A DNA stretch of 64,000 nt from an uncultured Candidatus Saccharibacteria bacterium (GTDB taxonomy: Bacteria; Patescibacteriota; Minisyncoccia; Phycocordibacterales; UBA9973): assembly GCA_964450735.1 (NCBI GenBank), contig CAYVDC010000001.1, positions 5,577-69,576 on the forward strand. Reading direction: 5' to 3'. Positions within the stretch are counted from its first letter, which is position 1. Each line of letters begins with the position of its first letter. The notes under the pieces were generated by a model. It ran no database searches. It worked only from the letters and a program-made list of their open reading frames with translations, and had not been told where the DNA came from. Positions 644 through 23,917 of this stretch are shown here, piece by piece. The position numbers were made by a program, and so were the translations under genes.

Positions 644-1594
644 TTAAAAATCTTCTAAAAAAATGTTTTCATTTTCACTTGGAATTTCTATCCTTGTGTA
701 TTCCCCCACTCTATTTTCAAAGAAATTATTCTTTCTTTTTAATGCAATTCTATTCATGTAGTCTAATGGATTAGAAACATTGAATTTAGGAGGAACATTG
801 TAATTAATAAGAATACTATCTGTGATATATTGAACAAACTGTATCATATCTTCTTTAGTAAGTCCTTCCAAGCCATCAGGCATACTTTCTTCTACAAAAG
901 TTTTCTCCACTTCGTAACATCCCAACACTATCTCTTCTAATTCTTCATTTGAAAGTTTATATTCCTCTTGTAAATAATTATTATAAAGATGGAGTCCGAA
1001 TTCATAATGAAGATTTTCATCTCCCATAATTAATTCATTGGCTGTACAAAGTCCTAACATTTTATTTCTACTTCTAAAATAGAATATTCCTGCAAATGTT
1101 GAGGAAAAACTAAGACCTTCCACCAATGAAAATGCTACCAATCTATGTGCAAATGATTGGTGTCCTATCCATTTTAAAGCCCATTCTGCTTTCTTTTTCA
1201 CTGTTTCTATCTCAGAGATAGCATTAAACATCTTTAATTGTTCTCCCCTATCTTTTATATAGGTGTCAATTAAAATTGAATATTGATTACTATGTACTTG
1301 TTCAATAAATGTTTGATGACCATAGAAATATTGTGCTTCCAATATATCCACTTCATTTAGAAAATTAACAGCTAAATTTTCTAACACCAACCCATCACTT
1401 ATAGTGAAAAATGCCAACAAATTCTTCAAATATTCCTGCTCTAAAACAGGAAGTTCGTTGAATCTATCGGCACTTAAATCATTTTCTTCCACCACCCATG
1501 TTTGGGCTTCTGCTTTTTTATAAAAACTCCATAAATCCCCATGTGTAATTGGGAAAATACTCCATCTTTTTTCAATATCATTACTTTTGAGCAT
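644..1594 (-). CDS. nrdB: Ribonucleotide reductase class I small subunit (R2)
   Basis: 316-aa ORF. The WSIFPITHGDLWSFYKKAEAQTWVVEE N-terminus and iron-ligand/tyrosyl-radical-region motifs (EGL.FS.FA.IFYFRSR, GDENLHYEF) are typical of NrdB/NrdF. Confidence 0.85.
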   Translation of the reverse strand: MLKSNDIEKRWSIFPITHGDLWSFYKKAEAQTWVVEENDLSADRFNELPVLEQEYLKNLLAFFTISDGLVLENLAVNFLNEVDILEAQYFYGHQTFIEQVHSNQYSILIDTYIKDRGEQLKMFNAISEIETVKKKAEWALKWIGHQSFAHRLVAFSLVEGLSFSSTFAGIFYFRSRNKMLGLCTANELIMGDENLHYEFGLHLYNNYLQEEYKLSNEELEEIVLGCYEVEKTFVEESMPDGLEGLTKEDMIQFVQYITDSILINYNVPPKFNVSNPLDYMNRIALKRKNNFFENRVGEYTRIEIPSENENIFLEDF

Positions 1595-2182: not shown

Positions 2183-2596
2183 CTAAGAAAAATTATGTAT
2201 CTTAGTCTTTTCTTCTTGTTTCAACCAACCACTACTTTTTAGTACGTCGTTGCCGAGTCTGTCATCCATAGTTAGGTTGTCCACAAGCGTAAATTCGGAC
2301 AAACGTTGCCCTATGTTATCATTATATATTCTAATTCCCTCTCTTTCAATATTAATTGCTGCGTTTAAGTCACGGTCAATAACGTTTTCACATTCCTCAC
2401 AAATAAATTCTCTATCCTTTAATGTTAAATTGCCATTCTTCCATCCACATTGGCAACAAGTTTTTGACGATGGAAACCATCTGCCAACAAATATTAACTC
2501 TCTACCATACCACTTTGATTTATATTCCAATTGTCTCCTCATTTCATATAACCCAAGTTCCTGAATAGACTTAGCTAATTTATGGTTCTTCATCAT
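2183..2596 (-). pseudogene. tnpB: IS200/IS605-family TnpB (OrfB), C-terminal fragment carrying the zinc finger and RuvC-III region
   Basis: Contains ...WFPSSKTCCQCGWKNGNLTLKDREFICEECENVIDRDLNAAINI.... The CxxC...CxxC finger followed by the DRDxNAAxNI motif is the hallmark TnpB C-terminus. The N-terminal two thirds of the protein are missing from this ORF. Confidence 0.7.
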
Positions 2597-3444
2597 TCCA
2601 CTAACATATTTTTATCCCAATCATTTTTGAATTTGTTGTATTTGATATTTGTGATTGTTTCTAATTCATTTTTTAATATAATTTTAAGGTTATATCCAAT
2701 TTCAATAAACAATCCGCATTTTTTCTTGGATTTATCAGAAAACATTCCTTTTATTTCAACCCATTGATTATCTTTTATTAAATAGAAATCGGGGGTATAT
2801 CTTAATCCGTTTAATAATTTTATAGTCTTATATTCATATTCCCATTCAATTAAATTATTTGTTAAATATTGAGCATACATAACTTCAAAACCACTTCTCA
2901 TTTTAATAAAAACACCATTTTTGTAAACTCCCCATTTTCTAGTTGAACACATTTTAGTGCTGTTATTTAAACCTATTCGACTACCAGTGATACTAACCAT
3001 TTCTTTTTGATAACACCCACAACTTTTAACTTTACCAGATACTAAATCAGCGTAATAATTTCTTTTAATATTACCACAGTCACATTTTGTTATATAGTAA
3101 TAACCCCCATTCTTATCATTCTGTTCAATATTTACAATGGTCAATCTATTAAATTTCTCACCAATCTTTGAATTTGCTGTTTTTGTATGTTTTTTATTTA
3201 AATTTCCAATACCAACTGAACATCCACACCCAATAATTTTACCGCTAGTTAAAACACTACCTCTAATTATTTTCTCATTACCACAATCACATTTACATAA
3301 ATATTCTTTTCCGTGATTCCCTGTGTGATTTAATTTAACTACTGTCAATTTTCCAAATTTAATACCAGTCAAGTCTTTTCCTTTACTCCCGCCAATTTTA
3401 TTACTCATATTGTTATATATTTTATCTATATATAAATATAACAA
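2593..3444 (-). CDS. putative homing-type endonuclease with two N-terminal zinc-ribbon DNA-binding repeats and a C-terminal PD-(D/E)xK-like nuclease domain
   Basis: Two repeats of the form FGKLTVV...YLCKCDCGNEKII...SGKIIGCGC and FNRLTIV...ITKCDCGNIKR...SGKVKSCGC. C-terminal ...RYTPDFYL...QWVEIKG... resembles a PD-(D/E)xK motif. It sits exactly between the two TnpB fragments. Confidence 0.45.
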   Translation of the reverse strand: MLYLYIDKIYNNMSNKIGGSKGKDLTGIKFGKLTVVKLNHTGNHGKEYLCKCDCGNEKIIRGSVLTSGKIIGCGCSVGIGNLNKKHTKTANSKIGEKFNRLTIVNIEQNDKNGGYYYITKCDCGNIKRNYYADLVSGKVKSCGCYQKEMVSITGSRIGLNNSTKMCSTRKWGVYKNGVFIKMRSGFEVMYAQYLTNNLIEWEYEYKTIKLLNGLRYTPDFYLIKDNQWVEIKGMFSDKSKKKCGLFIEIGYNLKIILKNELETITNIKYNKFKNDWDKNMLVE

Positions 3445-3482
3445 TATTTAGTTTTTTCTAAAATAATAACTTGGTTTTTTAA

Positions 3483-3809
3483 TTATTTTTGTTCATTGTT
3501 TTTAGATTTAAACTTAGGAAACCCTTTATGCCGTTTAAAGAAGTTTTTATATGCTTGTTCTAAGTTAATAATAGATTGTTTCAAAACTTTAGTATTATGT
3601 TCTTTTAACCAAATGTATTCAGTTCTTAGATTACTATGAAAGAAATGACCTAAATCTGATAGCGATGTATTTTGTTTATTTGAATCATAACGTTGTTTTT
3701 TGTATGATAAACATTGATTAAAGACAAACCGATAAGACCCAAAAAGTGAGTTTATCTTATGTTTTTGCTTATCATTTAGATATAATCTTATCTTTATTGC
3801 TTTTAACAT
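3483..3809 (-). pseudogene. tnpB: IS200/IS605-family TnpB (OrfB), N-terminal fragment
   Basis: MLKAIKIRLYLNDKQKHKINSLFGSYRFVFNQCL...EYIWLKEHNTKVLKQSIINLEQAYKNFFKRHKGFPKFKSKNNEQK matches the conserved TnpB N-terminus (KxxKxRxYPxxxQ...FG..RFVxN...AxKNFF...GxPKFKSK). The ORF terminates after roughly 108 aa. Confidence 0.7.
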
Positions 3810-4057
3810 TATTTCTTAACTTATTTTTCTTTTTTTTCTACGTTCAACACTACGCTTATCATAGAGATAACCATAAATACTATCAATTATTAACACCAAA
3901 TCAGTTACCAAATCTTCTTGTTCACTTACATTATTTTTCTCAATATATATCATCTCAACCCCATATATATTAAACAAATTATATTGAAACTTTGTTAATC
4001 TATTTTTATCCTAATCTTACATCTTTCATATTTGTTTATTTATATTTTGAGCAATAA

Positions 4058-4131
4058 GTGGGACTCAAACTCATAGCCCCCGACTTGGAAGGACGGTGCG
4101 CTAACCAATTGCGCCATTATTGCTTATGTTC
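4058..4131 (-). tRNA. tRNA-Gly (anticodon UCC)-like, 74 nt, with a non-canonical T-arm
   Basis: Minus strand reads GCAATAA TG GCGC AATTGGTTA GCGC A CCGTC CTTCCAA GTCGG ... TTATTGC T. The 7-bp acceptor stem is perfect and the D-arm is textbook. The CUUCCAA anticodon loop is the same as T4 tRNA-Gly. The anticodon stem has one U-U mismatch. The 17 nt where the T-arm should be (ATGAG TTTGAGT CCCAC) do not pair canonically. Confidence 0.5.
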
Positions 4132-7380: not shown

Positions 7381-8556
7381 TTATATTTTCACAAACTTTT
7401 TATAAGCATCATCGTAATTTTTTCTTCGCTTAGGTCTGTCTCCCCAAAGGTCAGAAAAACTTTCATCATCTTGATAAACTAAACATTCTTTTGATATATA
7501 AAACATTCTATCCATTGGAAAATTTACATAGAAATAATCTATTGTTGTAAAATCTTTCGGATTGTAGCTTAATAATTTATCAAAAAATACATTGTTTACC
7601 AAATAAGCATGTGCGCCATAAACTCCTCCTGTACATTCGTAAATGTTTTCTGTCACTTTTATACAATCGTTGTTTGGCTCTCCTCCTAAATACAATATGT
7701 CCCAATTTTGATTAGGAAGTTCCGATAATAGATTTTTAAACTTCTTTTCAAATCCTTCCATGAAAATACAATCATCTTCAAATATCAGAATATTGCTTAA
7801 ATTTTGCTTCTGAGCCTCTGAAATTATATTGTAATGTGAATATGCTCCTGCCACTTTAAAGTGCTGTCTTGGGTCTTTATTTTTCGTTATACCAAGCGTT
7901 TTAATGTCTTCTTCTGATAATACAGTGGCACTTATTCTTTCTATTGGAAATTGAAAATTGGATGTTTGTTTTTCAAAAGAAATTCTTCTATCGGTTCTTG
8001 TATCAACATTAATGTAAACAGCTTTTTCAATGTTAAATTTAATGTTTTTATTATGAACCCACACAGAATGTCCTTCTTTATAAAAATCATCTTCAAATCT
8101 TTCGTTTACAGCCCTCACTACTCCTTCCCAACAGGGGTCGTAATCATGTCCAGCCATCATCCCCCCATTTTTAAGTTTGGGATACCACAGTTCTATGTCT
8201 TTTTTTACATATTCGTAGGTGTGGTTGGCATCAATATAAATGAAATCAAAATAGTTATTTTCAAATAATGATGCTCCACTATGAGAATCTATTTTGAAAT
8301 AAGTAAATAAATGAGAAATTTGAGAAGTGTTTCGTATGAATTGAACAAAATCTTCTTCATTCTCCCATAAATCTATGGAATATATGTTTAATTTTTTATT
8401 TTGCTTTAAACTCTCAATAACCAAAAAGCTAATAGACTTCCCTCTATAAGTTCCTATTTCAATAACATTAGCCCCATCAGGAAGATTGGAAACAGTTTGT
8501 TTATAAAATTCTTCATAATCAAACCATCCTTCAAGTTTTTGGTAAAAATGATTCAT
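7381..8556 (-). CDS. bifunctional class I SAM-methyltransferase-like N-domain plus glycosyltransferase family 25 (LPS/LOS-type) C-domain
   Basis: N-terminal VIEIGTYRGKSISFL is Gly-rich SAM motif I-like. C-terminal KAVYINVDTRTDRRISFEKQ...GAYSHYNIISEAQ...ILIFEDDCIF... matches GT25 (YVINL.RR.DRR...GC..SH..I...ILEDD). Confidence 0.5.
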   Translation of the reverse strand: MNHFYQKLEGWFDYEEFYKQTVSNLPDGANVIEIGTYRGKSISFLVIESLKQNKKLNIYSIDLWENEEDFVQFIRNTSQISHLFTYFKIDSHSGASLFENNYFDFIYIDANHTYEYVKKDIELWYPKLKNGGMMAGHDYDPCWEGVVRAVNERFEDDFYKEGHSVWVHNKNIKFNIEKAVYINVDTRTDRRISFEKQTSNFQFPIERISATVLSEEDIKTLGITKNKDPRQHFKVAGAYSHYNIISEAQKQNLSNILIFEDDCIFMEGFEKKFKNLLSELPNQNWDILYLGGEPNNDCIKVTENIYECTGGVYGAHAYLVNNVFFDKLLSYNPKDFTTIDYFYVNFPMDRMFYISKECLVYQDDESFSDLWGDRPKRRKNYDDAYKKFVKI

Positions 8557-10941: not shown

Positions 10942-11110
10942 TCAATACAATTGACAAAAGACCATCAAATATAAATACACTTATTTGATAATTAGTCAAT
11001 AAGTCTATAATAGAAATAACATCTATAACTAATAGAGTGGTGAGGGCGGCAAATCGCTTTGAAGAAATAGCACCTTTTGAACTAAATAGACTTATTAAAA
11101 ATGATTTCAC
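10847..11110 (-). CDS. small membrane protein (87 aa)
   Basis: Two hydrophobic segments (LTTLLVIDVISIIDLL and LLSIVLIGLGF). Confidence 0.3.
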   Translation of the reverse strand: MKSFLISLFSSKGAISSKRFAALTTLLVIDVISIIDLLTNYQISVFIFDGLLSIVLIGLGFTTIEKFKKSKNEPEINPKGEPEQDSL

Positions 11111-11134
11111 GACACTGTTTTCTTATAAATAGTG

Positions 11135-11629
11135 TCATTTATTCTTTTTAACAGTGTTAGACTTAACTAAATCAATTAATTCTTGTAAACAATAGTAAAC
11201 ATTAGAAAGTCCTGCTTTATCATCTAAAAGAACATTGTAATAAATCTTTCTTGGTTCTTTTTCATATTTCATCTTTTCAAAATATTCTAAAGCAATGGGA
11301 GAATTTTCATTTATTTTATCAAATGGAAGAGAGTGTTCTTTCCAAAACGATTTAACATGATTTTCATCTCTATTTGCCGTAAAAATAATAATATAAGCAT
11401 CTAAATATGTTTTACAATCTCGAACCAACCTCCTCACCATTTCATGTTCCCCGTCAGAGTGCCATTTTTCGATAGTGTCGTCGTGGTCAACTGCTATGAT
11501 GTAATGTGGATATTTTTTATATTCATCCACCATCCTATCCATCACCTTTTGAGGACGCATAAAATAGTCCAATTTACGTTGCTCCTTTATATGTTTTAAA
11601 TTAACTATTTCAAACGGTTTTATTATCAT
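11135..11629 (-). CDS. HAD-superfamily phosphatase-like protein
   Basis: IIAVDHDDTI resembles HAD motif I (DxDxT). NVLLDDKAG resembles motif IV (DD). Confidence 0.4.
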   Translation of the reverse strand: MIIKPFEIVNLKHIKEQRKLDYFMRPQKVMDRMVDEYKKYPHYIIAVDHDDTIEKWHSDGEHEMVRRLVRDCKTYLDAYIIIFTANRDENHVKSFWKEHSLPFDKINENSPIALEYFEKMKYEKEPRKIYYNVLLDDKAGLSNVYYCLQELIDLVKSNTVKKNK

Positions 11630-11870
11630 ATTTTGATATAGTTTTTACAATCCAATCAGAATATCCATCGGGGTTATATGGTTCTAAACCTGCTTCCACC
11701 ATTTCAAAAGTGTTAAATCCTTCTTTATAAGCATTTTTTAGTAAGATGTATAATGCCTGATAGCTTATATTAAATGATGTACTTTTTTCTTCTTCTCTTA
11801 TATTAGTCCCATTCATGTAAATATAAATTTCTATTTTCCACCCCACAATGTAATGCTTTTTCAATATCAC
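11610..11870 (-). CDS. hypothetical protein (86 aa)
   Basis: ORF on the dominant strand. Confidence 0.3.
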   Translation of the reverse strand: MILKKHYIVGWKIEIYIYMNGTNIREEEKSTSFNISYQALYILLKNAYKEGFNTFEMVEAGLEPYNPDGYSDWIVKTISKYDNKTV

Positions 11871-12048
11871 AATGATATATGATGGTTTCTTTTTCAGGAC
11901 TCACCATGCAAGTTATACCCATTAAAGCATTATAAAATTTATCCATATTAAGTCCTTCAAATTTAGAAATAATTTCATCTATTTCAGACCTAACAAATCC
12001 TTGTGGATATTTTGTTTTGAAATTATAAACTTCTTCGCGGATATTCAT
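11803..12048 (-). CDS. hypothetical protein (81 aa)
   Basis: ORF on the dominant strand. Confidence 0.3.
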   Translation of the reverse strand: MNIREEVYNFKTKYPQGFVRSEIDEIISKFEGLNMDKFYNALMGITCMVSPEKETIIYHCDIEKALHCGVENRNLYLHEWD

Positions 12049-12230
12049 TATATTTCTCTTAAAAATAATGTAAGAGCCTCATTCAAATCAGGACTATCAA
12101 CTTCGATTTCTCCATCGCCAACCAAATAATTTCCTGCATAGTAGAATATAGAGATTTCTTCTCCTAATTCTTTTACAATTTTTTCAATAAGTTGTTCTGT
12201 TGTCATTTTATTTTAATTTTTAAAAAGAAA

Positions 12231-12320
12231 ATTCCCCAAGTCTCAAATTTTCCATGCGCATTTCAGAGCCTGTTTACTCATTGAAGCGCATGATAGTTTC
12301 CACTTGGGCTTTCGATTGGG
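12231..12320 (-). repeat. 90-bp imperfect palindrome forming a three-segment hairpin. Paired segments are AATTCCCCAA/TTGGGGAATT, CCCAAGT/ACTTGGG and CATGCGC/GCGCATG. On the minus strand it is followed by TTCTTTTT, so it may act as a terminator or structured RNA.
   Basis: Inverted-repeat arms read directly from the sequence. It lies downstream of the methyltransferase gene that ends at 12467. Confidence 0.45.
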
Positions 12321-12466
12321 GAATTTATTCCGCAATAATTATATACTTTAAACCATTTTCCATTTCAATAAGTTCACCACTATTCATTATTTTGTCAAAA
12401 ATGTCAGGTTCTAATATCGAATAAAACCATTCTATTGTATTTTGAATTATAATCTGTTTCCCTGTT

Positions 12467-12985
12467 TTAGTCTCCATTTTCTGCCATCACCATAAAAGAA
12501 TTGTTTAAATCTATTCCACTGACAAATATATTTTTCCAATCTCTATCTACTAAATAATCTCTTAGAATTGTTGGGGATAGATGATGAATATGTTTCCTAT
12601 TATTCCAACATCTCCAATAAATTTGTGAATAATCAGGAAGATAGAGAAATAATACACCATTGTTTACTAATTTAGTTTTCCAATAATCCAACACTTCCAC
12701 CCAATCATCAATGTGTTCAATACAATGACTACTAAAAATATAATCAAATTGTCCTGATGGGAGATTTAGGGCATGTAATAAATGATTTTCTTCATCATAT
12801 TCATTAAATTCTAAATCAATTGGGATGGAAAAAGGAAAAGCCCAATGTCTATATTTACATCCAACATCAACTCCCCTTCCTTTACAAACATTTAATGCAA
12901 ATGGAATTGCAAATCGAGCCGCATTTCCTTCTGTTTGAAATTTCGGATATGAAGCTCCTTTATATTCTATAACATCAATAGGCAT
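12467..12985 (-). CDS. class I SAM-dependent methyltransferase
   Basis: GRGVDVGCKYRHW matches motif I (G.D.GCG). FDYIFSSHCIEHI is typical of the Methyltransf_11/23 type. Confidence 0.55.
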   Translation of the reverse strand: MPIDVIEYKGASYPKFQTEGNAARFAIPFALNVCKGRGVDVGCKYRHWAFPFSIPIDLEFNEYDEENHLLHALNLPSGQFDYIFSSHCIEHIDDWVEVLDYWKTKLVNNGVLFLYLPDYSQIYWRCWNNRKHIHHLSPTILRDYLVDRDWKNIFVSGIDLNNSFMVMAENGD

Positions 12986-12987
12986 TT

Positions 12988-13605
12988 CTATAAATTCAAA
13001 TAAAAGTTGTTTTGTGATTCTTGCTTTTCAATAGTTTTTATGTGATGAAAGAACATTGTTGGTGGAAGATAGGAATATGTTTTATAATTTGTCAATTTTT
13101 CATGCACTTTATTCATCCATTTTATCCCTTTTCCATTTTTAAATATTCTCCATTGATAATCTTCTCCATTAATGTTCCCAAATCCATCCATTTTCCATCC
13201 CCATTTTTTCAAATGTTCTTGTGTTATTCCTAACACTTTGTTCTTTCTTGGAATTGCAAATATATCAATAACATCGTTCACAATCAATACATTTTTGATA
13301 TATTTTAAAAACAATTCACATGGAATTTCATCAGCATCTATTTGCACTATATATTCTCCTATTGGTGAATAGTTAAATAGTTGATTTTTGAAATTAGCAA
13401 AATGATTATTCAATGGATACCCATAACTTCTAATAGGTGCTACTTCTTTAAACGAATTTATAACACTTTTTACTCCTTCTGTCACTTTAGAAGTGTCATA
13501 TTGGATGATGATTTCATCTTCTATTAATGTCGGAACAAGTGTTGTTAGAAGATTTTTCAATTCATCTTCTTCATCACAAGCTGTAATAAAATATGTTAGT
13601 TTCAT
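12988..13605 (-). CDS. glycosyltransferase family 2-like protein
   Basis: ITACDEEDELKNLL...IIIQYDTS...IVQIDADE matches the GT2 N-terminal pattern with a DxD-like IDADE. Confidence 0.45.
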   Translation of the reverse strand: MKLTYFITACDEEDELKNLLTTLVPTLIEDEIIIQYDTSKVTEGVKSVINSFKEVAPIRSYGYPLNNHFANFKNQLFNYSPIGEYIVQIDADEIPCELFLKYIKNVLIVNDVIDIFAIPRKNKVLGITQEHLKKWGWKMDGFGNINGEDYQWRIFKNGKGIKWMNKVHEKLTNYKTYSYLPPTMFFHHIKTIEKQESQNNFYLNL

Positions 13606-14042
13606 AGTTTATCCAATGAAAGTCCAATAGCAGAACAGGCTTCTTCAAAGAAATGATAGGGAAATAAAACAGATTTTTCAAAATTAGCCCTTCCATCTTC
13701 CTTTGGAGCTATTCTCCATTTACAATCATCTTTATTGCTTCCATCTAAGAACATAATAATATGTTTATTATCAAAAAAGAATGGAGACCAAAAGTTTCCT
13801 TCTTCATCTAAAATAGAAACATCTTTAAATAGTTCGGGAACTGCTTCTGAATCCATGTATTTTTCTGACAATAGTTTTCCATCAATTATTTTATTCATTG
13901 ATTTAACACATGTCAATCCACATGATTTACATATAGAACTATTTAATTCGTTAATAGTGGTGACTTCTTCCCCATTTCCACATGGACATTTTTCAACGGA
14001 AAGTGTATATTCGTTTTCTAATTCAAATTCTTTATCTTTCAT
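13602..14042 (-). CDS. hypothetical Cys-rich protein (146 aa)
   Basis: CPCG...CKSCGLTC cysteine cluster. Translationally coupled to the flanking glycosyltransferase genes. Confidence 0.35.
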   Translation of the reverse strand: MKDKEFELENEYTLSVEKCPCGNGEEVTTINELNSSICKSCGLTCVKSMNKIIDGKLLSEKYMDSEAVPELFKDVSILDEEGNFWSPFFFDNKHIIMFLDGSNKDDCKWRIAPKEDGRANFEKSVLFPYHFFEEACSAIGLSLDKL

Positions 14043-15328
14043 GGCATATTATAATCAAAATTGATAAAATCGGGAAGGACAATTTCTCTTTCGATTGGAA
14101 TAAATTCATCTATAATTTTTTCTAATTCATTTTTCATTTTTGAAAGAGAAAATTTATTAGAATGTATTTGTTGAAGTTTAGCTCCTTTCAAATGTCCTTT
14201 ATAGTCATCGAAAACTTCTTTCATCACTCTCGCCGCATCTTGATAATCAATAGTGAACCATGAAGATTCAGGAATTAACATATCTTTTACAACAGCACTT
14301 CCGTCAATCTTGTCAATTACTCCTCCGATTAAATTAACATATCTCTTATCCAAATAATCAAGATGTCCACTCCAATTTGAAACTACTATTGGCTTTCCTG
14401 CGGATGCCGTAAATTCTAAAATAGGTTTTCCAAACCCTTCTCCCTTAGTAAATGAAACAAAACTCTTCACTTTTCTATGATTGTAGAGTTCATTCATTTC
14501 TTCGTCTGATAATTCTCCATGAATCAAATAGATGTTAGGGAGTATTGATGCTGATACAGAGTTTCTGATAGAATTTATTTTATTTAAAATATCATCTCTA
14601 TCTAAAATTGACGTTGTTGCACCGCTTGTTTTCAATATTAATGCAGGACGATTAGTTGTTTTGTTTTTAAAAGTTTCCAAAAACACTTTAACTAACATTC
14701 CAACGTCTTTTCTATCATGTCCAATGTTTCCTTGAAGCCATGTTCCCACAAATAAAAAACAAAAATCTTCACTAATTTCTCTCATTGTCTCAGAGAGGTC
14801 TTGTGATTTATATTCTTTTATTGAATTTAATGGTTTGAAAATTTCTTCATTAAACCCTTCAAATAACACTTTTATCGGTTTAACCACTTCAATTGGTGTC
14901 ACAGACCCATCAGCTTCATTTCTTAATTCATATTTGGTGTCTAAAAATATCTTTTTAGTAAATTCAGAAGGAACTATAACCAAATCGGCTTTATTACATC
15001 CTTCAATCCAAGCAGATGGAGCTACTGTTGTTTCAATACCGGAAGTGAATAAAATGTTATATTCTCCCACAGGATTAAACTCATTTGGGATACCAACATG
15101 AATATAAACATCAGGTTTTTTAGAAAGAACATTTTCTCTTACATACTTTTTTACAACATCATCATCGGGGAGATAACCAAATTTAGTGTTCCCCCATTTT
15201 AAACTAATTAAATGTATATCCCAATCTTCATGTTTTAAATCTATGATGGATTTACAAATGTCATATGATTTCTTTCCATATCCTGAAAGTGTATCAAAAC
15301 ATGAAGTGATTACAGCATATTTTTTCAC
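14039..15328 (-). CDS. GT-B fold glycosyltransferase (GT4 / Glycos_transf_1-like)
   Basis: C-terminal TKGEGFGKPILEFTASAGKPIVVSNWSGHLDYL matches the E.FG...EA.A.G.PVI...GG motif of retaining GT4 enzymes. Confidence 0.55.
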   Translation of the reverse strand: MKKYAVITSCFDTLSGYGKKSYDICKSIIDLKHEDWDIHLISLKWGNTKFGYLPDDDVVKKYVRENVLSKKPDVYIHVGIPNEFNPVGEYNILFTSGIETTVAPSAWIEGCNKADLVIVPSEFTKKIFLDTKYELRNEADGSVTPIEVVKPIKVLFEGFNEEIFKPLNSIKEYKSQDLSETMREISEDFCFLFVGTWLQGNIGHDRKDVGMLVKVFLETFKNKTTNRPALILKTSGATTSILDRDDILNKINSIRNSVSASILPNIYLIHGELSDEEMNELYNHRKVKSFVSFTKGEGFGKPILEFTASAGKPIVVSNWSGHLDYLDKRYVNLIGGVIDKIDGSAVVKDMLIPESSWFTIDYQDAARVMKEVFDDYKGHLKGAKLQQIHSNKFSLSKMKNELEKIIDEFIPIEREIVLPDFINFDYNMP

Positions 15329-16758
15329 AATGAAATAGGGTGTTTTTGGTAATGTTTGTTTTGTAATTTCTTCACTTTTATAACATCGAATCTACTTCTT
15401 CTCTTAACAGATTGAATGGTGGCTTCTATTCCGTCAATAATACCATTAGCCATGTCCGTAGATTTCATTTTAGCCTCTTGTGAAATAGCCCAAGCTCTCC
15501 CCGCCAATCCACATTCTCTTCTTTCCTCTGATGGGAGTTGATATGTATTATATAGCTCATTAGCCACTTCTTGTGGGTCAACTCTATCATCAAAGATATA
15601 GGGAGTGGGTGGACTTCCTAATAGAGAAATGTTAGAAGGGAATATTGGGATAGCCCATTTTCCACATTTTTTATATTTTCCTCTATGATTGGTTTGAAAT
15701 GTTTCATTAAAATCAATCCAATTTCCTTTTTCATCTTCAAATCTCATTTGGTCTTGAATACCTCCTGTTACATTTCCCAAAATCATTCTACCTGCCATCA
15801 TAGATTCTGTCATCGACAGCCCCCATCCCTCATTAGAAGATATTAACATTGTCACATCAGCACAATTATATAGGAAATTCATCATGTCAATTCCATATTT
15901 TCCATCTGTAAAGAATACGTTGTATTTTTTTTCATCTCCAAACAACATATCTTTTACGGCAAACAAATCTGTTCCATTTACATCTATGGGGTCTGTGTGT
16001 AAAACAAGTCCCACTTTTTCAATTTCCTTATCAGAGAGTTTGTCACAAAATAATTTGAATGAAAGGAGAACGTCAGCAGGAGATTTTCGTCTAATATTAC
16101 GGGAATTCCATAAAGCAACAAAATCTAATTTCTTTCCACCAAATAAATTGTTTTTAAATTCTAAATATTCTTTAGTTTCAATCACAAGTGGATAAAACGC
16201 TTTATGATTGATTCCATGTGGAACAAATGAAGTGTATTTCTCACTTGCTTTATCTCCAAGAACTAATTTATTAATGTTATAGGTTTGTTTTGAAATAGCA
16301 ATAAGTCCGTCACATGATTCATAATAAGGCTTATTGTACATAGGAAGTGGCAGGTCATCCCAAATGTTATAATAAACAATGGGAATTTGAGTTCTAATAT
16401 CTCTTTCTACATTAAAAAGCCATCCATAATAACGTGGGTCTGTTATTATCATTAAAGCATCAGGTTTTTCTGTTTTTATGAGAAATTTAACTAAATCTTC
16501 ATCTCCATACCCATCAACACATATAGTATGAACCCAACTATCTTTTAAATTAGCCACTTCATTCACACTTGTTGACATATCAAATCTAACACCTTTATCG
16601 GGATGATTTTGCAGTCCACCAATACATATCCAATTATAAACATGAGCAGAGTTCACTATAATTTCTCTTGAAATAGTAGCCACTCCACTATGAGTTCTAA
16701 TATCATCACTAATGAGAAGAATTTTTCTTCTATTATCCCTTTCAATATATTTGTGCAT
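15325..16758 (-). CDS. GT-B fold glycosyltransferase (GT4-like)
   Basis: SSNEGWGLSMTESMMAGRMILGNVTGGIQDQM matches the EGFGL...EAMA.G.P.I....GG motif. The N-terminal half is Rossmann-like. Confidence 0.55.
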   Translation of the reverse strand: MHKYIERDNRRKILLISDDIRTHSGVATISREIIVNSAHVYNWICIGGLQNHPDKGVRFDMSTSVNEVANLKDSWVHTICVDGYGDEDLVKFLIKTEKPDALMIITDPRYYGWLFNVERDIRTQIPIVYYNIWDDLPLPMYNKPYYESCDGLIAISKQTYNINKLVLGDKASEKYTSFVPHGINHKAFYPLVIETKEYLEFKNNLFGGKKLDFVALWNSRNIRRKSPADVLLSFKLFCDKLSDKEIEKVGLVLHTDPIDVNGTDLFAVKDMLFGDEKKYNVFFTDGKYGIDMMNFLYNCADVTMLISSNEGWGLSMTESMMAGRMILGNVTGGIQDQMRFEDEKGNWIDFNETFQTNHRGKYKKCGKWAIPIFPSNISLLGSPPTPYIFDDRVDPQEVANELYNTYQLPSEERRECGLAGRAWAISQEAKMKSTDMANGIIDGIEATIQSVKRRSRFDVIKVKKLQNKHYQKHPISL

Positions 16759-18388: not shown

Positions 18389-18859
18389 TTAAGAAATTTC
18401 TGTTGTTTCGTCGTCTTTAACAACATTTGTTTTCTTAATAGGAGCTTGTTTTCCTTTATTAAACTTATTTCTCTTCTTTGAAGGAGTAAAGAACATTGAC
18501 ATATCCGAAGTAACACTTCCCATTCTACTGTCTGGTGGGTTATATCCCGGACGCACCACTCTTTTCTTACGTTTAACAATACGAATATTTTTCATCATAT
18601 CCGTTCTATATAATCTCCATTCAGGAACTCTTCTTCTTTTACTCCATCCACCTACATGCCATCCCGCCACCACTTCATTTCCCGTTTCAATATGATGACC
18701 TAATGTGAATGGTTCTATGAATCTTTTATGGTATTTGTCATCGGGAGTTCCATCAATATTTTTATAAAAGAATTCAATAGCATCGCCATTTTCAATGGCT
18801 TGTTTTATTTTATCTCCATTAATGGATTCTGTAAGAAATTTGACTAAGGAAAGTTCCAA
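18389..18859 (-). CDS. hypothetical protein (156 aa) with a basic C-terminal half
   Basis: ORF on the dominant strand. KRRRVPEWR...KRKKRVV basic stretch. Confidence 0.35.
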   Translation of the reverse strand: MELSLVKFLTESINGDKIKQAIENGDAIEFFYKNIDGTPDDKYHKRFIEPFTLGHHIETGNEVVAGWHVGGWSKRRRVPEWRLYRTDMMKNIRIVKRKKRVVRPGYNPPDSRMGSVTSDMSMFFTPSKKRNKFNKGKQAPIKKTNVVKDDETTEIS

Positions 18860-19681: not shown

Positions 19682-20767
19682 TCAATTACTTAATGGAATT
19701 TTAATGAATGGATGGTGTTGATAATTAATTAGTTCAAAATCTGATATGTCATATTCAGAAATATCATCTACCTTCCTATTTTTCACTTTCAATATCGGAA
19801 GTTGATATAAAGGTTTGGTAAATTGAGTTTCAACATATGGAATTTGATTCTCATATACATGAACATCTCCCCCATCAAATATTAATTCATCAGGAATCAT
19901 GTTCACTTCTTTAGCAATGATTTCTAATAAAAGAGCGTACACCATCATATTAGTTGGAAGTCCAAGAGGAAGGTCTGTACTTCTCATATTAAACTTTAAA
20001 GAAAGAGCTTTAGTTGGAATATTAGCCCAATTCAATTCTTGCTCAATTTGTTCGTTTGAAACTCCCTCGTAATTTTGCCCTACATTGAACGATATTCCTC
20101 CCGATGATACAATCCTATGGAAATAATTAAATCGTTCGTTAAAAGTCAAATTTCGTGCGTTAAATTGGAAGTTTGTATGACATGGATTTAACACCATTTC
20201 ATTTAACCGAGAAACATCCCAATTATCCACTAAAATTCGCCTACTATTTGGATTGTTTTTTAATTCCTTAATAGCGTTAGCTATTTGGTCGATTTTGCCT
20301 TCCTCTGATGAAAAATTTCTCCATTGATAGGGATACAGTGGGCCGACATCTCCAAACTTTTTACAAAAAACATCGTCTGTTAAAACACGTTGTTCAAATT
20401 CTAAAAAAGTAAAACCCCTAACTTTATTTTCTTGAACATCTTCTATCAAATAATCATAATCAGGCTCTTCAAGTGTGTTTGTAAAATTCAAATAACTTTG
20501 ATAACAATCCCCAGTCCATATGTGACAATTGTTTTCTAAAAGAAATTTAATAGAGGTGTTTCCTTTTAAGAACCAAAGAAGTTCAACAACAGCATTATTA
20601 AAATTTATTTTTCTACTTGTTAGAATTGGGAATCCGTCTGACATTTTATGTCTTATTGTTCTTCCAAAAACACTTAATGTTTTCCCATTTCTCCCTTCTT
20701 TTTCATATCCATTATCTAAAACATCTTGTAAGATGCTTAAATATTGTTCTTCATAACTTTTATTCAT
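19682..20767 (-). CDS. thyA: thymidylate synthase family enzyme (ThyA/Td type; dUMP-specific Asn retained) with two insertions
   Basis: Near-identical blocks to E. coli ThyA: DGFPILTSRKINFNNAVVELLWFLKG, GKIDQI...LKNNPNSRRIL, LNPCHTNFQFN (catalytic Cys), and MRSTDLPLGLPTNMMVYALL (Arg/Asp and the dUMP-specifying Asn). A roughly 50-aa insertion follows IWTGD, as in the L. casei and T4 type. A second insertion of about 45 aa follows the PCH motif. Confidence 0.8.
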   Translation of the reverse strand: MNKSYEEQYLSILQDVLDNGYEKEGRNGKTLSVFGRTIRHKMSDGFPILTSRKINFNNAVVELLWFLKGNTSIKFLLENNCHIWTGDCYQSYLNFTNTLEEPDYDYLIEDVQENKVRGFTFLEFEQRVLTDDVFCKKFGDVGPLYPYQWRNFSSEEGKIDQIANAIKELKNNPNSRRILVDNWDVSRLNEMVLNPCHTNFQFNARNLTFNERFNYFHRIVSSGGISFNVGQNYEGVSNEQIEQELNWANIPTKALSLKFNMRSTDLPLGLPTNMMVYALLLEIIAKEVNMIPDELIFDGGDVHVYENQIPYVETQFTKPLYQLPILKVKNRKVDDISEYDISDFELINYQHHPFIKIPLSN

Positions 20768-20787: not shown

Positions 20788-21315
20788 TTAAAATGAATAA
20801 GATTCTTCTGTTGCAGGAATATATCGTCCTTCCACCTCTTTTATCAATCCAAACTTTCCATCTTTCACCCCATAAATCATTTTTTTAATTTTTGGTTGAA
20901 GAGGAAAAGAATAAAAAATGGTTGAATTTCCTTTATAAACTAATTCAATACAGGTGTCTTTTACAATTGTATCAATTAATTCCCATTTTATGAAATTATC
21001 TGTTGCTATTGTCACACTATTTCCACCATTTATTTTTAAAGAATTAGCATCAGATGTAAGATATGAAATCCCAGAGATTGTTCCACATCCTGTGAGCTGA
21101 ATAGTTCCTGTTTTTACTTCTTCTTTCTTTTCTTCTAATGGAATTGCCCATTTTTTAGCAAACCTTTCATCAGTGTCAATTTTCACTATAAAATTTTGAA
21201 ATGTCAAAGAAAGAGCCGAAGATAACATTCTCTCAAAGTCAGCATCTCCATCATAACGATTCAAATATTTTGAATAAGAAGCCTTGTAATCAATTTTTGT
21301 TGTTTTGTTTTTCAT
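20788..21315 (-). CDS. hypothetical protein (175 aa)
   Basis: ORF on the dominant strand, between thyA and the GMP-reductase-like gene. Confidence 0.35.
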   Translation of the reverse strand: MKNKTTKIDYKASYSKYLNRYDGDADFERMLSSALSLTFQNFIVKIDTDERFAKKWAIPLEEKKEEVKTGTIQLTGCGTISGISYLTSDANSLKINGGNSVTIATDNFIKWELIDTIVKDTCIELVYKGNSTIFYSFPLQPKIKKMIYGVKDGKFGLIKEVEGRYIPATEESYSF

Positions 21316-21318
21316 TGT

Positions 21319-21549
21319 TTATTGTAATTTAACTTTTTGTAAAAATTTAGATAGGAAGTCACATCTTTCATATTGTTCTGTTTCTTCATAGAACTTTATC
21401 ATTTTTTCTATTCTTGAAAATGAAGAACTATCAATTTTCTTTAGGTTTTTTAAATTAAAGAGGATGATGTAATATAAATTATATTCTTCTTCCAATGACA
21501 CTTTTCTATTTTCAATAGGTTTTTCTGCATAAGGAAATTGCAATTTCAT
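21319..21549 (-). CDS. hypothetical protein (76 aa)
   Basis: Small ORF. Confidence 0.3.
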   Translation of the reverse strand: MKLQFPYAEKPIENRKVSLEEEYNLYYIILFNLKNLKKIDSSSFSRIEKMIKFYEETEQYERCDFLSKFLQKVKLQ

Positions 21550-21582
21550 TATTTTATCCGATTATATTAATAATCAAAATCT

Positions 21583-21804
21583 TTATTTTTGTTTAATGTT
21601 AGGAGTTTTATGATAGGAATTAAAAAATCCATCAATAATACTTGAATATTGATTTGGATATTCCACTTCAAACATTCCATCCAAAGGATTGACATCTGTG
21701 ATGTTAAAACTGAATATTTTATTAGCTTGTTCAAATTTCCTTTTGATTTTATTGAAAATTTGTAATATTCGTGCTTTCTCTTCTAATTTGAATGATTTTT
21801 TCAT
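21583..21804 (-). CDS. hypothetical protein (73 aa)
   Basis: Small ORF. Confidence 0.3.
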   Translation of the reverse strand: MKKSFKLEEKARILQIFNKIKRKFEQANKIFSFNITDVNPLDGMFEVEYPNQYSSIIDGFFNSYHKTPNIKQK

Positions 21805-21810
21805 CTGAAT

Positions 21811-22758
21811 TTAATATAAATATCCATATTTCACTGAATTAAAACAGGATAGGGTAGTTCCTCCCCCATATGAAATTGAAGATTGTAAGTCTTCTTTCAT
21901 TTCTTCATATTTTTCTAAATAAGTCATGGGTGTATATTCGATTTCAATTCTTTTTCCTTCAATATTTCTATTATGTCCTTTGGTATATTCAGACGCAGAG
22001 CCATAATATATTTTTCTCATTCCTGTAACGGTGTTAATAGTTTCTGATGGGCTATCACTTAAAGAGGCAAACATTCCTCCCACCATCACCATTGTTGCTC
22101 CTGCCACTAATGCTTTAGGAATGTCTCCATTTTCTCTAATTCCTCCATCTGCTATAATGGGGAGAGTGCTTTGTTTTGAACATTCCAATACAGCATCAAA
22201 TTGTGGAAATCCAAATCCTGTTTTGTTATATGTAATGCAACTTTTTCCCATTGCTATTCCCACTTTAATAGCATTCACTCCACACTCAGTTAAATACTCA
22301 ACTCCTTCCTTAGTTGCTACATTTCCTGCTATAATAAATGCGTTATTAAATACATTTTTAATGTTATTTATTGTATTTTTAATTAACAATGAATGTCCAT
22401 GTGCAATGTCAATAGTGATACAATCTACATCATTTCCATTTTCTTTTATTCTCTTTAACATTTCAATATCTTCATCTTTTACTCCTATTGAAAGAGAAAT
22501 ATATTTGTTTTCATTTCTGAGAGAATAATCTTTCACCCAATTAATTATTTCCTCCTGAGAATAGAATCTATGAAGAATGTAAAAATAATTATTTTCAATA
22601 AGTTGTTCAGCTATATTAAAATCTATTACACATTTCATATTTGAAGGAATAATAGGGAGACCCCAACAGCGATTGGCAAAATAAACACTTGTTTCCGCTT
22701 CGCTTCTGGTGGTTAATGTTGAACATTTAGGAATTAAATAGATTCTGTTATAACTCAT
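21811..22758 (-). CDS. IMPDH/GMP-reductase family enzyme lacking a CBS domain (GuaC-like, 315 aa)
   Basis: CITIDIAHGHS, IIAGNVATKEGVEYL...NAIKVGIAMGKSCITYNKTGFGFPQFDAV (catalytic Cys loop) and IIADGGIR...GATMVMVGGMFA match the IMPDH/GMPR TIM barrel. The length and absent CBS domain favour a GMP-reductase-type enzyme. Confidence 0.65.
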   Translation of the reverse strand: MSYNRIYLIPKCSTLTTRSEAETSVYFANRCWGLPIIPSNMKCVIDFNIAEQLIENNYFYILHRFYSQEEIINWVKDYSLRNENKYISLSIGVKDEDIEMLKRIKENGNDVDCITIDIAHGHSLLIKNTINNIKNVFNNAFIIAGNVATKEGVEYLTECGVNAIKVGIAMGKSCITYNKTGFGFPQFDAVLECSKQSTLPIIADGGIRENGDIPKALVAGATMVMVGGMFASLSDSPSETINTVTGMRKIYYGSASEYTKGHNRNIEGKRIEIEYTPMTYLEKYEEMKEDLQSSISYGGGTTLSCFNSVKYGYLY

Positions 22759-23368
22759 TAGTTTTTTTGTTAGTTTTTCTTGTTTTTTTGAGTTCAGATA
22801 GTTTTTTAGCTTGTGCTTTTCTCCAATTTCTTACAGACATTAATGACTTATCCACTTTTTTATAAACATAATCAGCTATTCTTCTTCCTTTTTCATTTAA
22901 AACATATCTCTCTTTGTAAGCTGAATAGAATATACATTCAAGTAAATCATTGTCTGTTAAGAATTTAAAGAATCCTTCGTCTAAATAATTTTTAGTAGCT
23001 TGTCTTGAATTCTGAGTGATACAATAGTAATAATTTTTGTCTAATTTTAATTTTGTTATTGGAACTTCTTTCCAAATAGAGTTTAAAGATTGAAATTGTA
23101 GTTTAGATTTTGTATATGTTTTCTTTAAACTGTCTTTGTTTAAAATTCTATTGTTACATAACAATTTTTCTGAATAAATTAGTTCCTCTTCTTTTAAAGT
23201 TTTTAAAATATTTACTAATTTCTCATAACTTTCAGTCTGAGCAGCTACACTTTTGACAAAAAAACTAATTTTATTAGCTCTATGTTTAAAAACAATATCA
23301 GTCCATTCTGTTGGACTTATTTCTGTTGAAATATATGTTGGAACAAAATTATTAAATTCTTTTCTCAC
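22748..23368 (-). CDS. hypothetical protein (206 aa), first gene of the leftward block, GTG start
   Basis: ORF abuts the GC island at 23366. The start codon is GTG (complement of 23366-23368). The C-terminus is basic. Confidence 0.35.
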   Translation of the reverse strand: MRKEFNNFVPTYISTEISPTEWTDIVFKHRANKISFFVKSVAAQTESYEKLVNILKTLKEEELIYSEKLLCNNRILNKDSLKKTYTKSKLQFQSLNSIWKEVPITKLKLDKNYYYCITQNSRQATKNYLDEGFFKFLTDNDLLECIFYSAYKERYVLNEKGRRIADYVYKKVDKSLMSVRNWRKAQAKKLSELKKTRKTNKKTNEL

Positions 23369-23849
23369 GTGTGTGCGCGCATACGTGCGCGATATTAATT
23401 TAATATATTATTAAAAATAATATATTAGTTTTTATTTAAAAGTTAAATTATTTTATTTTAATTTATTTTTAATAAATTATATTTTCTTATTTTTATTTTA
23501 AAATGTTTTAAATGTTAAAAATATAATTTTAAATGTTTTATTTTAAATTTAAAATAATTATTTAGAAAATTTATATTAAAAATTTTCTATTATATATATT
23601 CTAATTAATTCTAATAATGATAAAACTACTAACGCGCCTGCGCGTGATGCGCCTACGTGCGCACGTATATGCGCGAGGATAAAATATTTAAAATAGAAAA
23701 CAAGAATTTTAACATTTTTTAACATATCTATTCAGATGAAACATTTTATACACAAATTTAACTAAATTTATTTGTTTTTCAAAGAAAATGTTATGAAATT
23801 TGAAAAATTATTTCACCCGCGTATGCGTACATGTACATGCGCGTGTATG
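23366..23849. promoter_or_regulatory. Candidate origin / divergent regulatory region. Three GC-rich palindromic islands with alternating purine-pyrimidine sequence (23366-23391, 23632-23675, 23817-23849) flank a roughly 240-bp near-pure A/T tract that contains repeated AAATGTTTTA units.
   Basis: Island 1 is CACGTGTGTGCGCGCATACGTGCGCG. Island 2 is ...TGCGCGTGATGCGCCTACGTGCGCACGTATATGCGCG. Island 3 is CCGCGTATGCGTACATGTACATGCGCGTGTATG. Perfect palindromes include CACGTG, TGCGCGCA, ACGTGCGCACGT and CATGTACATG. AAATGTTTTA occurs at 23501 and 23531. The region lies at the strand switch. Confidence 0.35.
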
Positions 23850-23917
23850 GAAAGGAAAATGGAGCAAAAGTTGAAACCTTAATAACAACCAAACACCAGA
23901 ATCGTTTTTAAGCCACC

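Follow-up and report, generated by a model that had tools for sequence, protein, structure and literature searches.

The window analysed in this work, a stretch of DNA of 64,000 nucleotides, is part of a T4-like myovirus. It contains genes for a baseplate wedge protein, the large terminase, a T4-type portal, a prohead protease, a primase, and an exonuclease, and just past its right edge the same contig, a 97-kb Logan assembly, carries the gp23 capsid protein, gp13, and PhoH. By the large terminase (TerL), the closest cultured relatives are Flavobacterium phage immuto (46% identity) and Microcystis phage Mel-JY01 (41%). The phage is uncultured, and a search for near-identical DNA with the 15 kb around the gene studied here gave no match among 50,697 phage records. 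The host group is likely Flavobacteriia-like, with the 46% TerL identity as the only guide to it. The gene in question is predicted to encode a GMP reductase (GMPR) and lies within a leftward string of genes; the features referred to in the text are the following, in window coordinates.

644-1594, minus strand: small subunit of ribonucleotide reductase (RNR), 20 kb from the GMPR gene
19682-20767, minus strand: thymidylate synthase ThyA, 361 aa, of the long Gram-positive type, additionally carrying an insert at residues 205-254 (~50 aa)
20788-21804, minus strand: three small open reading frames of 73, 76, and 175 aa that separate GMPR from ThyA; the related contig L001 has the first two as well
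21811-22758, minus strand: predicted GMP reductase gene, 315 aa, type-2 (GuaC-like), without CBS domain (from open reading frame, HMMs, tree, and structural model)
21952-21969, minus strand: RNIEGK segment, in which Glu267 (21958-21960) aligns with Glu289 of Escherichia coli GuaC and the Arg with its Arg286
22210-22248, minus strand: catalytic loop GKSCITYNKTGFG in the translation, with Cys174 at 22237-22239 and Thr176 at 22231-22233
22748-23368, minus strand: ORF206, 206 aa, upstream of GMPR, with 75% identity to its counterpart in L001
23369-24095, no strand: divergent intergenic region, with the ORF206-GMPR-ThyA string leading off to the left and other genes to the right

The GMPR open reading frame starts with an ATG codon, and the Pfam model of the IMPDH/GMPR family (PF00478) covers residues 2-260 of its product without interruption, at 186.6 bits against a gathering cut-off of 25.6 (E = 8.4e-55). 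Aligned with E. coli GuaB, the protein misses the CBS/Bateman insert of ~120 residues. A previous sequence-only reading of this DNA had described a 315-aa IMPDH/GMPR barrel with a catalytic Cys loop and no CBS domain, and the open reading frame, the loop, Pfam, and the GuaB alignment all agree with that description.

Regarding the type of enzyme, the top NCBIfam model was NF003966 (GMP reductase; 340.1 bits, E = 1.4e-101) and the second TIGR01306 (type-2 GMP reductase; 298.7 bits), with 186 and 161 bits for the type-1 GuaC models and 154.6 bits for the IMPDH model TIGR01302, whose cut-off is 481.5. The two type-2 models outscored the remaining ones by a wide margin, despite scores below their equivalog cut-offs (344 for NF003966, a near miss, and 465.65 for TIGR01306); being 4 bits short of the former, the protein narrowly fails automatic naming by NCBI's rule. 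Among solved structures, Bacillus anthracis GuaC (1ypf/2a1y) is nearest in sequence, with an end-to-end alignment (E = 5.8e-79); this match and the one to NF003966 are far beyond chance. An AlphaFold2 model built from an alignment (pLDDT 91, pTM 0.91) and compared to the PDB with Foldseek gave 2a1y and 1ypf as best matches (E = 3e-32, TM 0.85–0.92), above CBS-deleted IMPDHs and human GMPR2.

The residues expected for the chemistry are also in place. In a MAFFT alignment that includes GuaC and GuaB of E. coli, Cys174, Thr176, and Glu267 pair with Cys186, Thr188, and Glu289 of GuaC, and Asp204 with Asp219. Mutation of these three catalytic residues in E. coli GuaC abolished the complementation of a guaC mutant (PMC2525682). 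What distinguishes IMPDH is a flap whose Arg-Tyr dyad activates water (PMC2525682). Both the window protein and GuaC have a deletion at the GuaB segment containing this flap, KGSSDRYFQSDNAAD (...SSDRYFQ...). Cys174, Thr176, Glu267, Asp204 (the ribose-binding Asp of the DGG motif), YYGSAS, and RNIEGK are invariant in 16 homologues with 48–74% identity. The sequence of the catalytic loop is GIAMGKSC, against GIGPG(S/K)xC in most of the family, while close phage relatives have GISMGASC, GIANGKAC, or GIANGKSC and other type-2-like sequences GIGQG or GIGGG. Since type-2-like sequences vary at the same loop positions, we do not read a functional change into GIAMGKSC.

A neighbour-joining tree of 54 sequences (100 bootstraps) was built with IMPDH as outgroup, cellular GMPRs of both types, GMPRs of cultured phages, IMG/VR loci, and metagenomic sequences. 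The window protein falls among the type-2 GMPRs (98% bootstrap) and, within that clade, in a mainly viral/metagenomic subclade with 73% support. In a scan of genome contigs its best cellular matches were Bacillota GuaC (43–46% identity), with the flavobacterial type-1 enzymes reaching only ~34%. A bacterial GMPR from the same sample (P0008), located on a contig of 43% GC, is 50% identical. IMPDH was rejected as an identity on the score given above and the missing CBS pair and flap dyad. The previous assignment to GMP reductase and not IMPDH has thus held, family HMMs, catalytic residues, missing CBS domain and flap, phylogeny, and fold model being in agreement; both the placement relative to GuaC and IMPDH and the residues that tell them apart (catalytic Cys/Thr/Glu present, IMPDH Arg-Tyr flap missing) fall on the GMPR side. 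At sequence level, then, the window protein is a type-2 (Bacillota GuaC-like) GMP reductase, with presumptive substrate and cofactor.

The leftward string runs from the divergent intergenic region through ORF206, GMPR, and the three small open reading frames to ThyA, which is situated ~1 kb downstream of GMPR; a papain-like peptidase is also found in the string. The stop codon of ORF206, a protein with no Pfam, PHROG, or PADLOC match, overlaps the GMPR start by 11 nt (ATGAGTTATAA), which makes co-transcription and translational coupling of the two probable. The intergenic region is presumably the promoter region of the GMPR operon. Its sequence is very AT-rich apart from three GC-rich islands, in which purines and pyrimidines alternate. 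A sigma-70 promoter scan gave 44 matches against 34 expected, which is uninformative in DNA this rich in AT. In ThyA, the catalytic Cys of the PCH motif and the Asn that specifies dUMP (GLPTN) are both kept, and the protein aligns with the long form of ThyA from Gram-positives; a hydroxymethylase identity was rejected on these grounds.

The sequence-only reading had located GMPR among genes of dNTP synthesis. This is true of ThyA, nearby and on the same strand, but much less so of RNR, whose small subunit is 20 kb away (its large subunit lies just left of window position 1, both in the source contig and in the sibling contig L121). The order ORF206, GMPR, small open reading frames, ThyA is kept in contigs L001 (GMPR 74% identical) and L002 (53%), and in L003 (52%) a gene for ThyX is found ~1.5 kb downstream of GMPR, at the place that ThyA has in the relatives. 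GMPR and ThyA are genuinely linked, and contigs of related phages keep the linkage. With 31% GC and a GC3 of 20%, the GMPR gene equals other phage genes, within a window of 30.4% GC, and this shared base composition indicates that it is not a recent import. Host contamination or a recent transfer was ruled out by the phage-like composition together with the synteny.

How widespread these genes are among viruses depends on where one looks. A tblastn search of the 50,697 phage records retrieved ~10 distinct phage species with GMPR. The carriers found were Bacillus phage G, Thermus phages phiYS40, TMA, YS40_Isch, and T72, Caulobacter phage Cr30, Xanthomonas phages XacN1 and Xoo-sp13, Stenotrophomonas phages RAS14 and CM1, Microcystis phage Mel-JY01, the crAss-like phage cr108_1, and several huge metagenomic phages. 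Many of the remaining matches were short unannotated "phage" records resembling host DNA. The window protein is also matched by PHROG 9582 ("dehydrogenase") at 3e-85. Within IMG/VR, 26 contigs have type-2-like relatives and at least 588 a type-1-like GMPR. The earlier view of an uncommon phage function is therefore right for cultured phages but not for viral metagenomes.

Giant haptophyte viruses encode a GMP reductase too (PMC11953307), and a survey of pelagimyophages described it as specific to one ecotype, from deep waters (PMC7029224). In our literature search, viral GMPRs came up only as annotations made in passing (PMC7029224, PMC11953307); we found no experimental work on any of them, and nothing on the function of the gene in Cr30 or phiYS40. 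Phage GMPRs have already been annotated (phage G gp120, Cr30, XacN1, Xoo-sp13, phiYS40/TMA, RAS14, pelagimyophages), and the finding is less unusual than the sequence-only reading implied.

The distribution over viral lineages is patchy. Most phages, including most of the T4-like ones, are devoid of GMPR, and among pelagimyophages a single ecotype carries it (PMC7029224). Such a pattern would suit a horizontally acquired passenger gene of little or no benefit, or a mere stand-in for a host enzyme that infection has shut off, unconnected with base composition. However, the catalytic and binding residues are all kept in relatives down to ~50% identity, the position of the gene has been maintained while the GMPRs diverged to 74 and 53% identity, and the codon composition is fully ameliorated. 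Invariant residues, conserved position, and ameliorated composition together point to long-term purifying selection in the phage lineage, and a neutral passenger is hard to square with them. We regard a gene of this kind as an unlikely explanation.

A different clue comes from the genes that accompany GMPR elsewhere. Thymidylate synthase is found near GMPR in several separate phage lineages, and it may be of either of the two unrelated types (ThyA or ThyX). Thus, phiYS40 has ThyX, dUTPase, and thymidine kinase (TK) within 6 kb of GMPR, in cr108_1 the ThyX gene is directly upstream and overlaps the GMPR start, and in the group of L017, L018, and L024 ThyX is within 10 kb. As a general rule this linkage was rejected, since it is present in only 3 of the best 80 type-1-like viral loci.

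Regarding base composition, the 28 type-2 viral loci have a median GC of 31% (range 24–44%) and the best 80 type-1-like viral loci 19–44%, none being above 45%, a trend that may be inflated because the homologues were retrieved by similarity to proteins of AT-rich genomes and because aquatic viromes tend to AT-richness in any case. Each of the cultured carriers has a lower GC content than its host: at the sampled loci it was 33% for phiYS40, 38% for Cr30, 50% for XacN1, 30% for G, and 36% for Mel-JY01, and the respective hosts have ~69, 67, 65, 38, and 43%. Staphylococcus aureus infected with an AT-rich kayvirus shows induction of its own guaC and purA (PMC9241854). It is the proximity of thymidylate synthase, the AT-rich carriers, and this induction of guaC and purA that lead us to favor a role in the balance of DNA precursors.

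The most likely explanation, to which we assign a probability of roughly 0.6, is that the gene encodes a functional NADPH-dependent type-2 GMPR, expressed in one operon with ThyA, that would act as an auxiliary salvage enzyme directing nucleotides toward the precursors of A+T-rich DNA. Among the three purposes put forward by the sequence-only reading (a non-canonical purine in DNA, rebalancing of pools in an AT-rich system, and draining of guanine-nucleotide signals), the rebalancing of pools fits best and is plausible. According to the known chemistry of the family (PMC2525682, PMC9790621), Cys174 would attack C2 of GMP, and a proton relay of Thr176 and Glu267 would help ammonia to leave, giving the covalent intermediate E-XMP*, which NADPH would reduce to IMP. 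With GMPR expressed from the leftward operon together with ThyA, guanine ribonucleotides coming from host RNA and nucleotide pools could be returned to the IMP hub, and from there reach AMP and finally dATP via the host PurA and PurB, kinases, and the phage RNR. ThyA would at the same time pull pyrimidines toward dTTP, so that the two enzymes together might match the supply of precursors to a genome of 70% A+T.

The route to dATP needs PurA and PurB, which were not found in the phage sequence examined. As the likely host group is itself AT-rich, the imbalance between phage and host DNA may be small, and the argument would then lean on the host RNA, richer in GC.

The same enzyme could instead lower GMP, GDP, and GTP, acting on (p)ppGpp or GTP sensing and in this way reprogramming the host or blunting a defence that depends on guanine nucleotides. 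The evidence on the enzyme itself is identical for draining and for rebalancing the pool. The level of GTP is a known regulatory signal in Bacillota, and GMPR is the second gene of an operon that departs from a divergent promoter region, with small open reading frames for neighbours of the sort typical of host-takeover regions. Against this, PADLOC detected no defence or anti-defence family in GMPR or its neighbours, and the repeated co-location with thymidylate synthase, dihydrofolate reductase (DHFR), TK, and RNR suggests the supply of DNA precursors, not signalling. GMPR acts on GMP alone, so a drain on GTP would require flux back through GMP. We consider this role improbable.

Far less probable still is a function in making a non-canonical purine for phage DNA, or at the deoxynucleotide level, where dGMP from degraded host DNA would be converted to dIMP and on to dAMP. 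In its favor one could cite the nearby genes of dNTP synthesis, a substrate specificity that is not certain from sequence, and, in the leftward region (7381-8556 and 14039-16758), two GT1-like glycosyltransferases and a methyltransferase-GT25 fusion that could in principle modify DNA; however, glycosyltransferase clusters of related aquatic myophages have been read as surface-polysaccharide genes (PMC7029224). Asp204 (DGG) and the motifs of the GMP site match ordinary ribonucleotide GMPRs. To our knowledge, GMPR is not part of the 7-deazaguanine or 2-aminoadenine pathways, and we know of no phage with deoxyinosine-substituted DNA. None of FolE, QueC, QueD, QueE, DpdA, or PurZ/MazZ/DatZ was found in the ~70 window open reading frames scanned (Pfam/PHROGs) or in the Pfam labels of its flanks, which together cover all but ~18 kb of the 97-kb source contig. 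With ordinary GMP-site motifs and no Que/DpdA/PurZ-type genes in the frames and labels scanned, the proposal of a role in making a non-canonical purine has no support.

Coming back to the rebalancing of purine pools, a broader version of it can be put forward, tentatively and with more doubt than conviction. GMPR and an interchangeable ThyA or ThyX could form a recurrent "A+T supply" pair, turning G and C/U nucleotides into dATP and dTTP, and the resulting bias might enable, and help to drive, the descent of phage GC below that of the host. In a more radical variant, the phage GMPR may accept dGMP too. The recurring pairing of GMPR with thymidylate synthase in AT-rich phages is only mildly new, and the GMPR of the window, taken alone, is one further auxiliary gene of nucleotide metabolism in a phage. 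It serves as an example for a general question, namely how phages whose base composition is unlike the nucleotide supply adjust their purine pools. The pyrimidine side of it (dCMP deaminase, ThyA/ThyX) is well studied, whereas for the purine side in phages, with GMPR, we found no test in the literature.

Compared with known systems, the window protein shares with IMPDH (GuaB) the (beta/alpha)8 barrel and the Cys-Thr-Glu core but neither the CBS/Bateman pair nor the Arg-Tyr flap. The type-1 GMPRs (Cr30, XacN1, Xoo-sp13, RAS14/CM1, E. coli GuaC, and human GMPR2) belong to the same reaction family, with the same Cys, Thr, and Glu, and those of phages are likewise auxiliary genes, carried by phages with a lower GC content than their hosts; they differ in being only 27–32% identical to the window protein, in forming a clade of their own, and in the greater length of their C-terminus and loop. 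Much closer is gp120 of phage G ("guanosine 5'-monophosphate oxidoreductase"), a type-2 GMPR 47% identical over 98% of the length, in a locus with ThyA and DHFR 2 kb downstream and RNR upstream, and with ~30% GC as in the window phage. Nevertheless, phage G is a jumbo Bacillus phage and the window phage a T4-like one related to Flavobacterium phage immuto, and in the tree gp120 groups with the host enzymes of Bacillota, while the window protein is in a separate viral/metagenomic subclade. The GuaC of B. anthracis and other Bacillota has in common with it a length of ~320 aa, the absence of CBS, the Cys-x-Thr loop, the Glu, DGG, Y(F/Y)GSAS, and DLQSSISY, although the identity is only ~42–47%, the loop is GIGPGKVC in place of GIAMGKSC, and the insertion of two residues (GG) after TGFG is missing in the window protein. 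Unlike Bacillota GuaC, the window protein is a phage product, and the sequences nearest to it come mostly from viruses or metagenomes.

The phage of the window and its near-identical sibling, represented by contig L121, differ at a TnpB-like region, both flanks of which are 99–100% identical in the two contigs. The features at this spot are:

2183–4123, minus strand, TnpB-like region (counterpart at 7462–9283 of L121)
2183–2596, minus strand, Cas12f1-like TNB domain of the TnpB-like region
2593–3444, minus strand, ORF with HNH and endonuclease-I-like parts
3483–3809, minus strand, HTH_OrfB_IS605 piece of the TnpB-like region
4049–4123, tRNA-Gly(TCC)

At the same place L121 has instead an intact IS607-like pair, made up of a 206-aa serine resolvase and a 406-aa TnpB, and the segment replaced between the two contigs (window 2311–4070) has an end falling within tRNA-Gly(TCC). 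Judging from this sequence comparison, two phages that are otherwise nearly identical are polymorphic here for a mobile element (window 2311–4070 versus the L121 pair). The ORF with HNH and endonuclease-I-like parts has TnpB-like pieces on either side. Adjoining the TnpB-like remnant, the stretch GGTAGCCGACGGAATCGAACCGCC (2106–2129) corresponds, in reverse complement, to the T-arm and acceptor 3' end of a tRNA; ARAGORN called no tRNA at these positions, and the stretch could be either a piece of a tRNA or an atypical one.

L121 also covers the RNR large-subunit region (10962–15294), which lies immediately to the left of the window. An 811-aa ORF (ATP-cone, lgN, and lgC) is succeeded there by one of 423 aa that has no Pfam match, and then by one of 201 aa that matches Ribonuc_red_lgC again. 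The large subunit appears to be split in this contig, and the three-ORF layout suggests an intervening mobile ORF or an intein-like disruption.

The operon that carries the GMP reductase (GMPR) gene ends in thymidylate synthase, with two further genes just downstream:

19682–20767, minus strand, ThyA, 361 aa
18877–19623, minus strand, papain-family (C1) cysteine peptidase
18389–18859, minus strand, weak WYL-domain protein

ThyA has the insert of ~50 aa typical of the Lactobacillus casei and Staphylococcus aureus enzymes and a second one of similar length (~50 aa, residues about 205–254), directly after the catalytic-Cys strand, for which no counterpart was found in solved thymidylate synthases. 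The papain-family peptidase is unusual in a phage nucleotide-metabolism region.

Upstream of the operon, the extremely AT-rich divergent intergenic region holds three GC-rich islands in which purines and pyrimidines alternate almost perfectly (e.g., CACGTGTGTGCGCGCATACGTGCGCGA):

23366–23392, alternating GC-rich island
23628–23666, alternating GC-rich island
about 23815–23850, alternating GC-rich island

Two of them came from a GC-rich-window scan of the 64 kb, which found no strongly alternating ones among its other islands, and the third from inspection of the sequence by eye. Possible roles for the islands are as regulatory elements, as part of an origin, or as Z-DNA-prone elements.

Both GMPR types have homologues on giant-virus-like contigs (L117/L118, on a 495 kb TARA contig, and GVMAG loci such as L007, L123, and L127); these homologues adjoin ORFs of ~1980 aa without Pfam match and also occur in the "GVMAG" bins of IMG/VR. 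Phages are therefore not the only viruses with a GMPR.

The leftward region that includes GMPR also contains a glycosyltransferase/methyltransferase cluster:

7381–8556, 12467–12985, and 14039–16758, minus strand, methyltransferase-GT25 fusion, small SAM methyltransferase, and two large GT1-like glycosyltransferases (compare locus L115, 6138–10156)

The two GT1-like genes are 81–83% conserved in the related phage contig L001, and candidate targets of the cluster are DNA or the cell surface. Like the phage of the window, Microcystis phage Mel-JY01 has glycosyltransferase and methyltransferase genes, located there directly downstream of GMPR.
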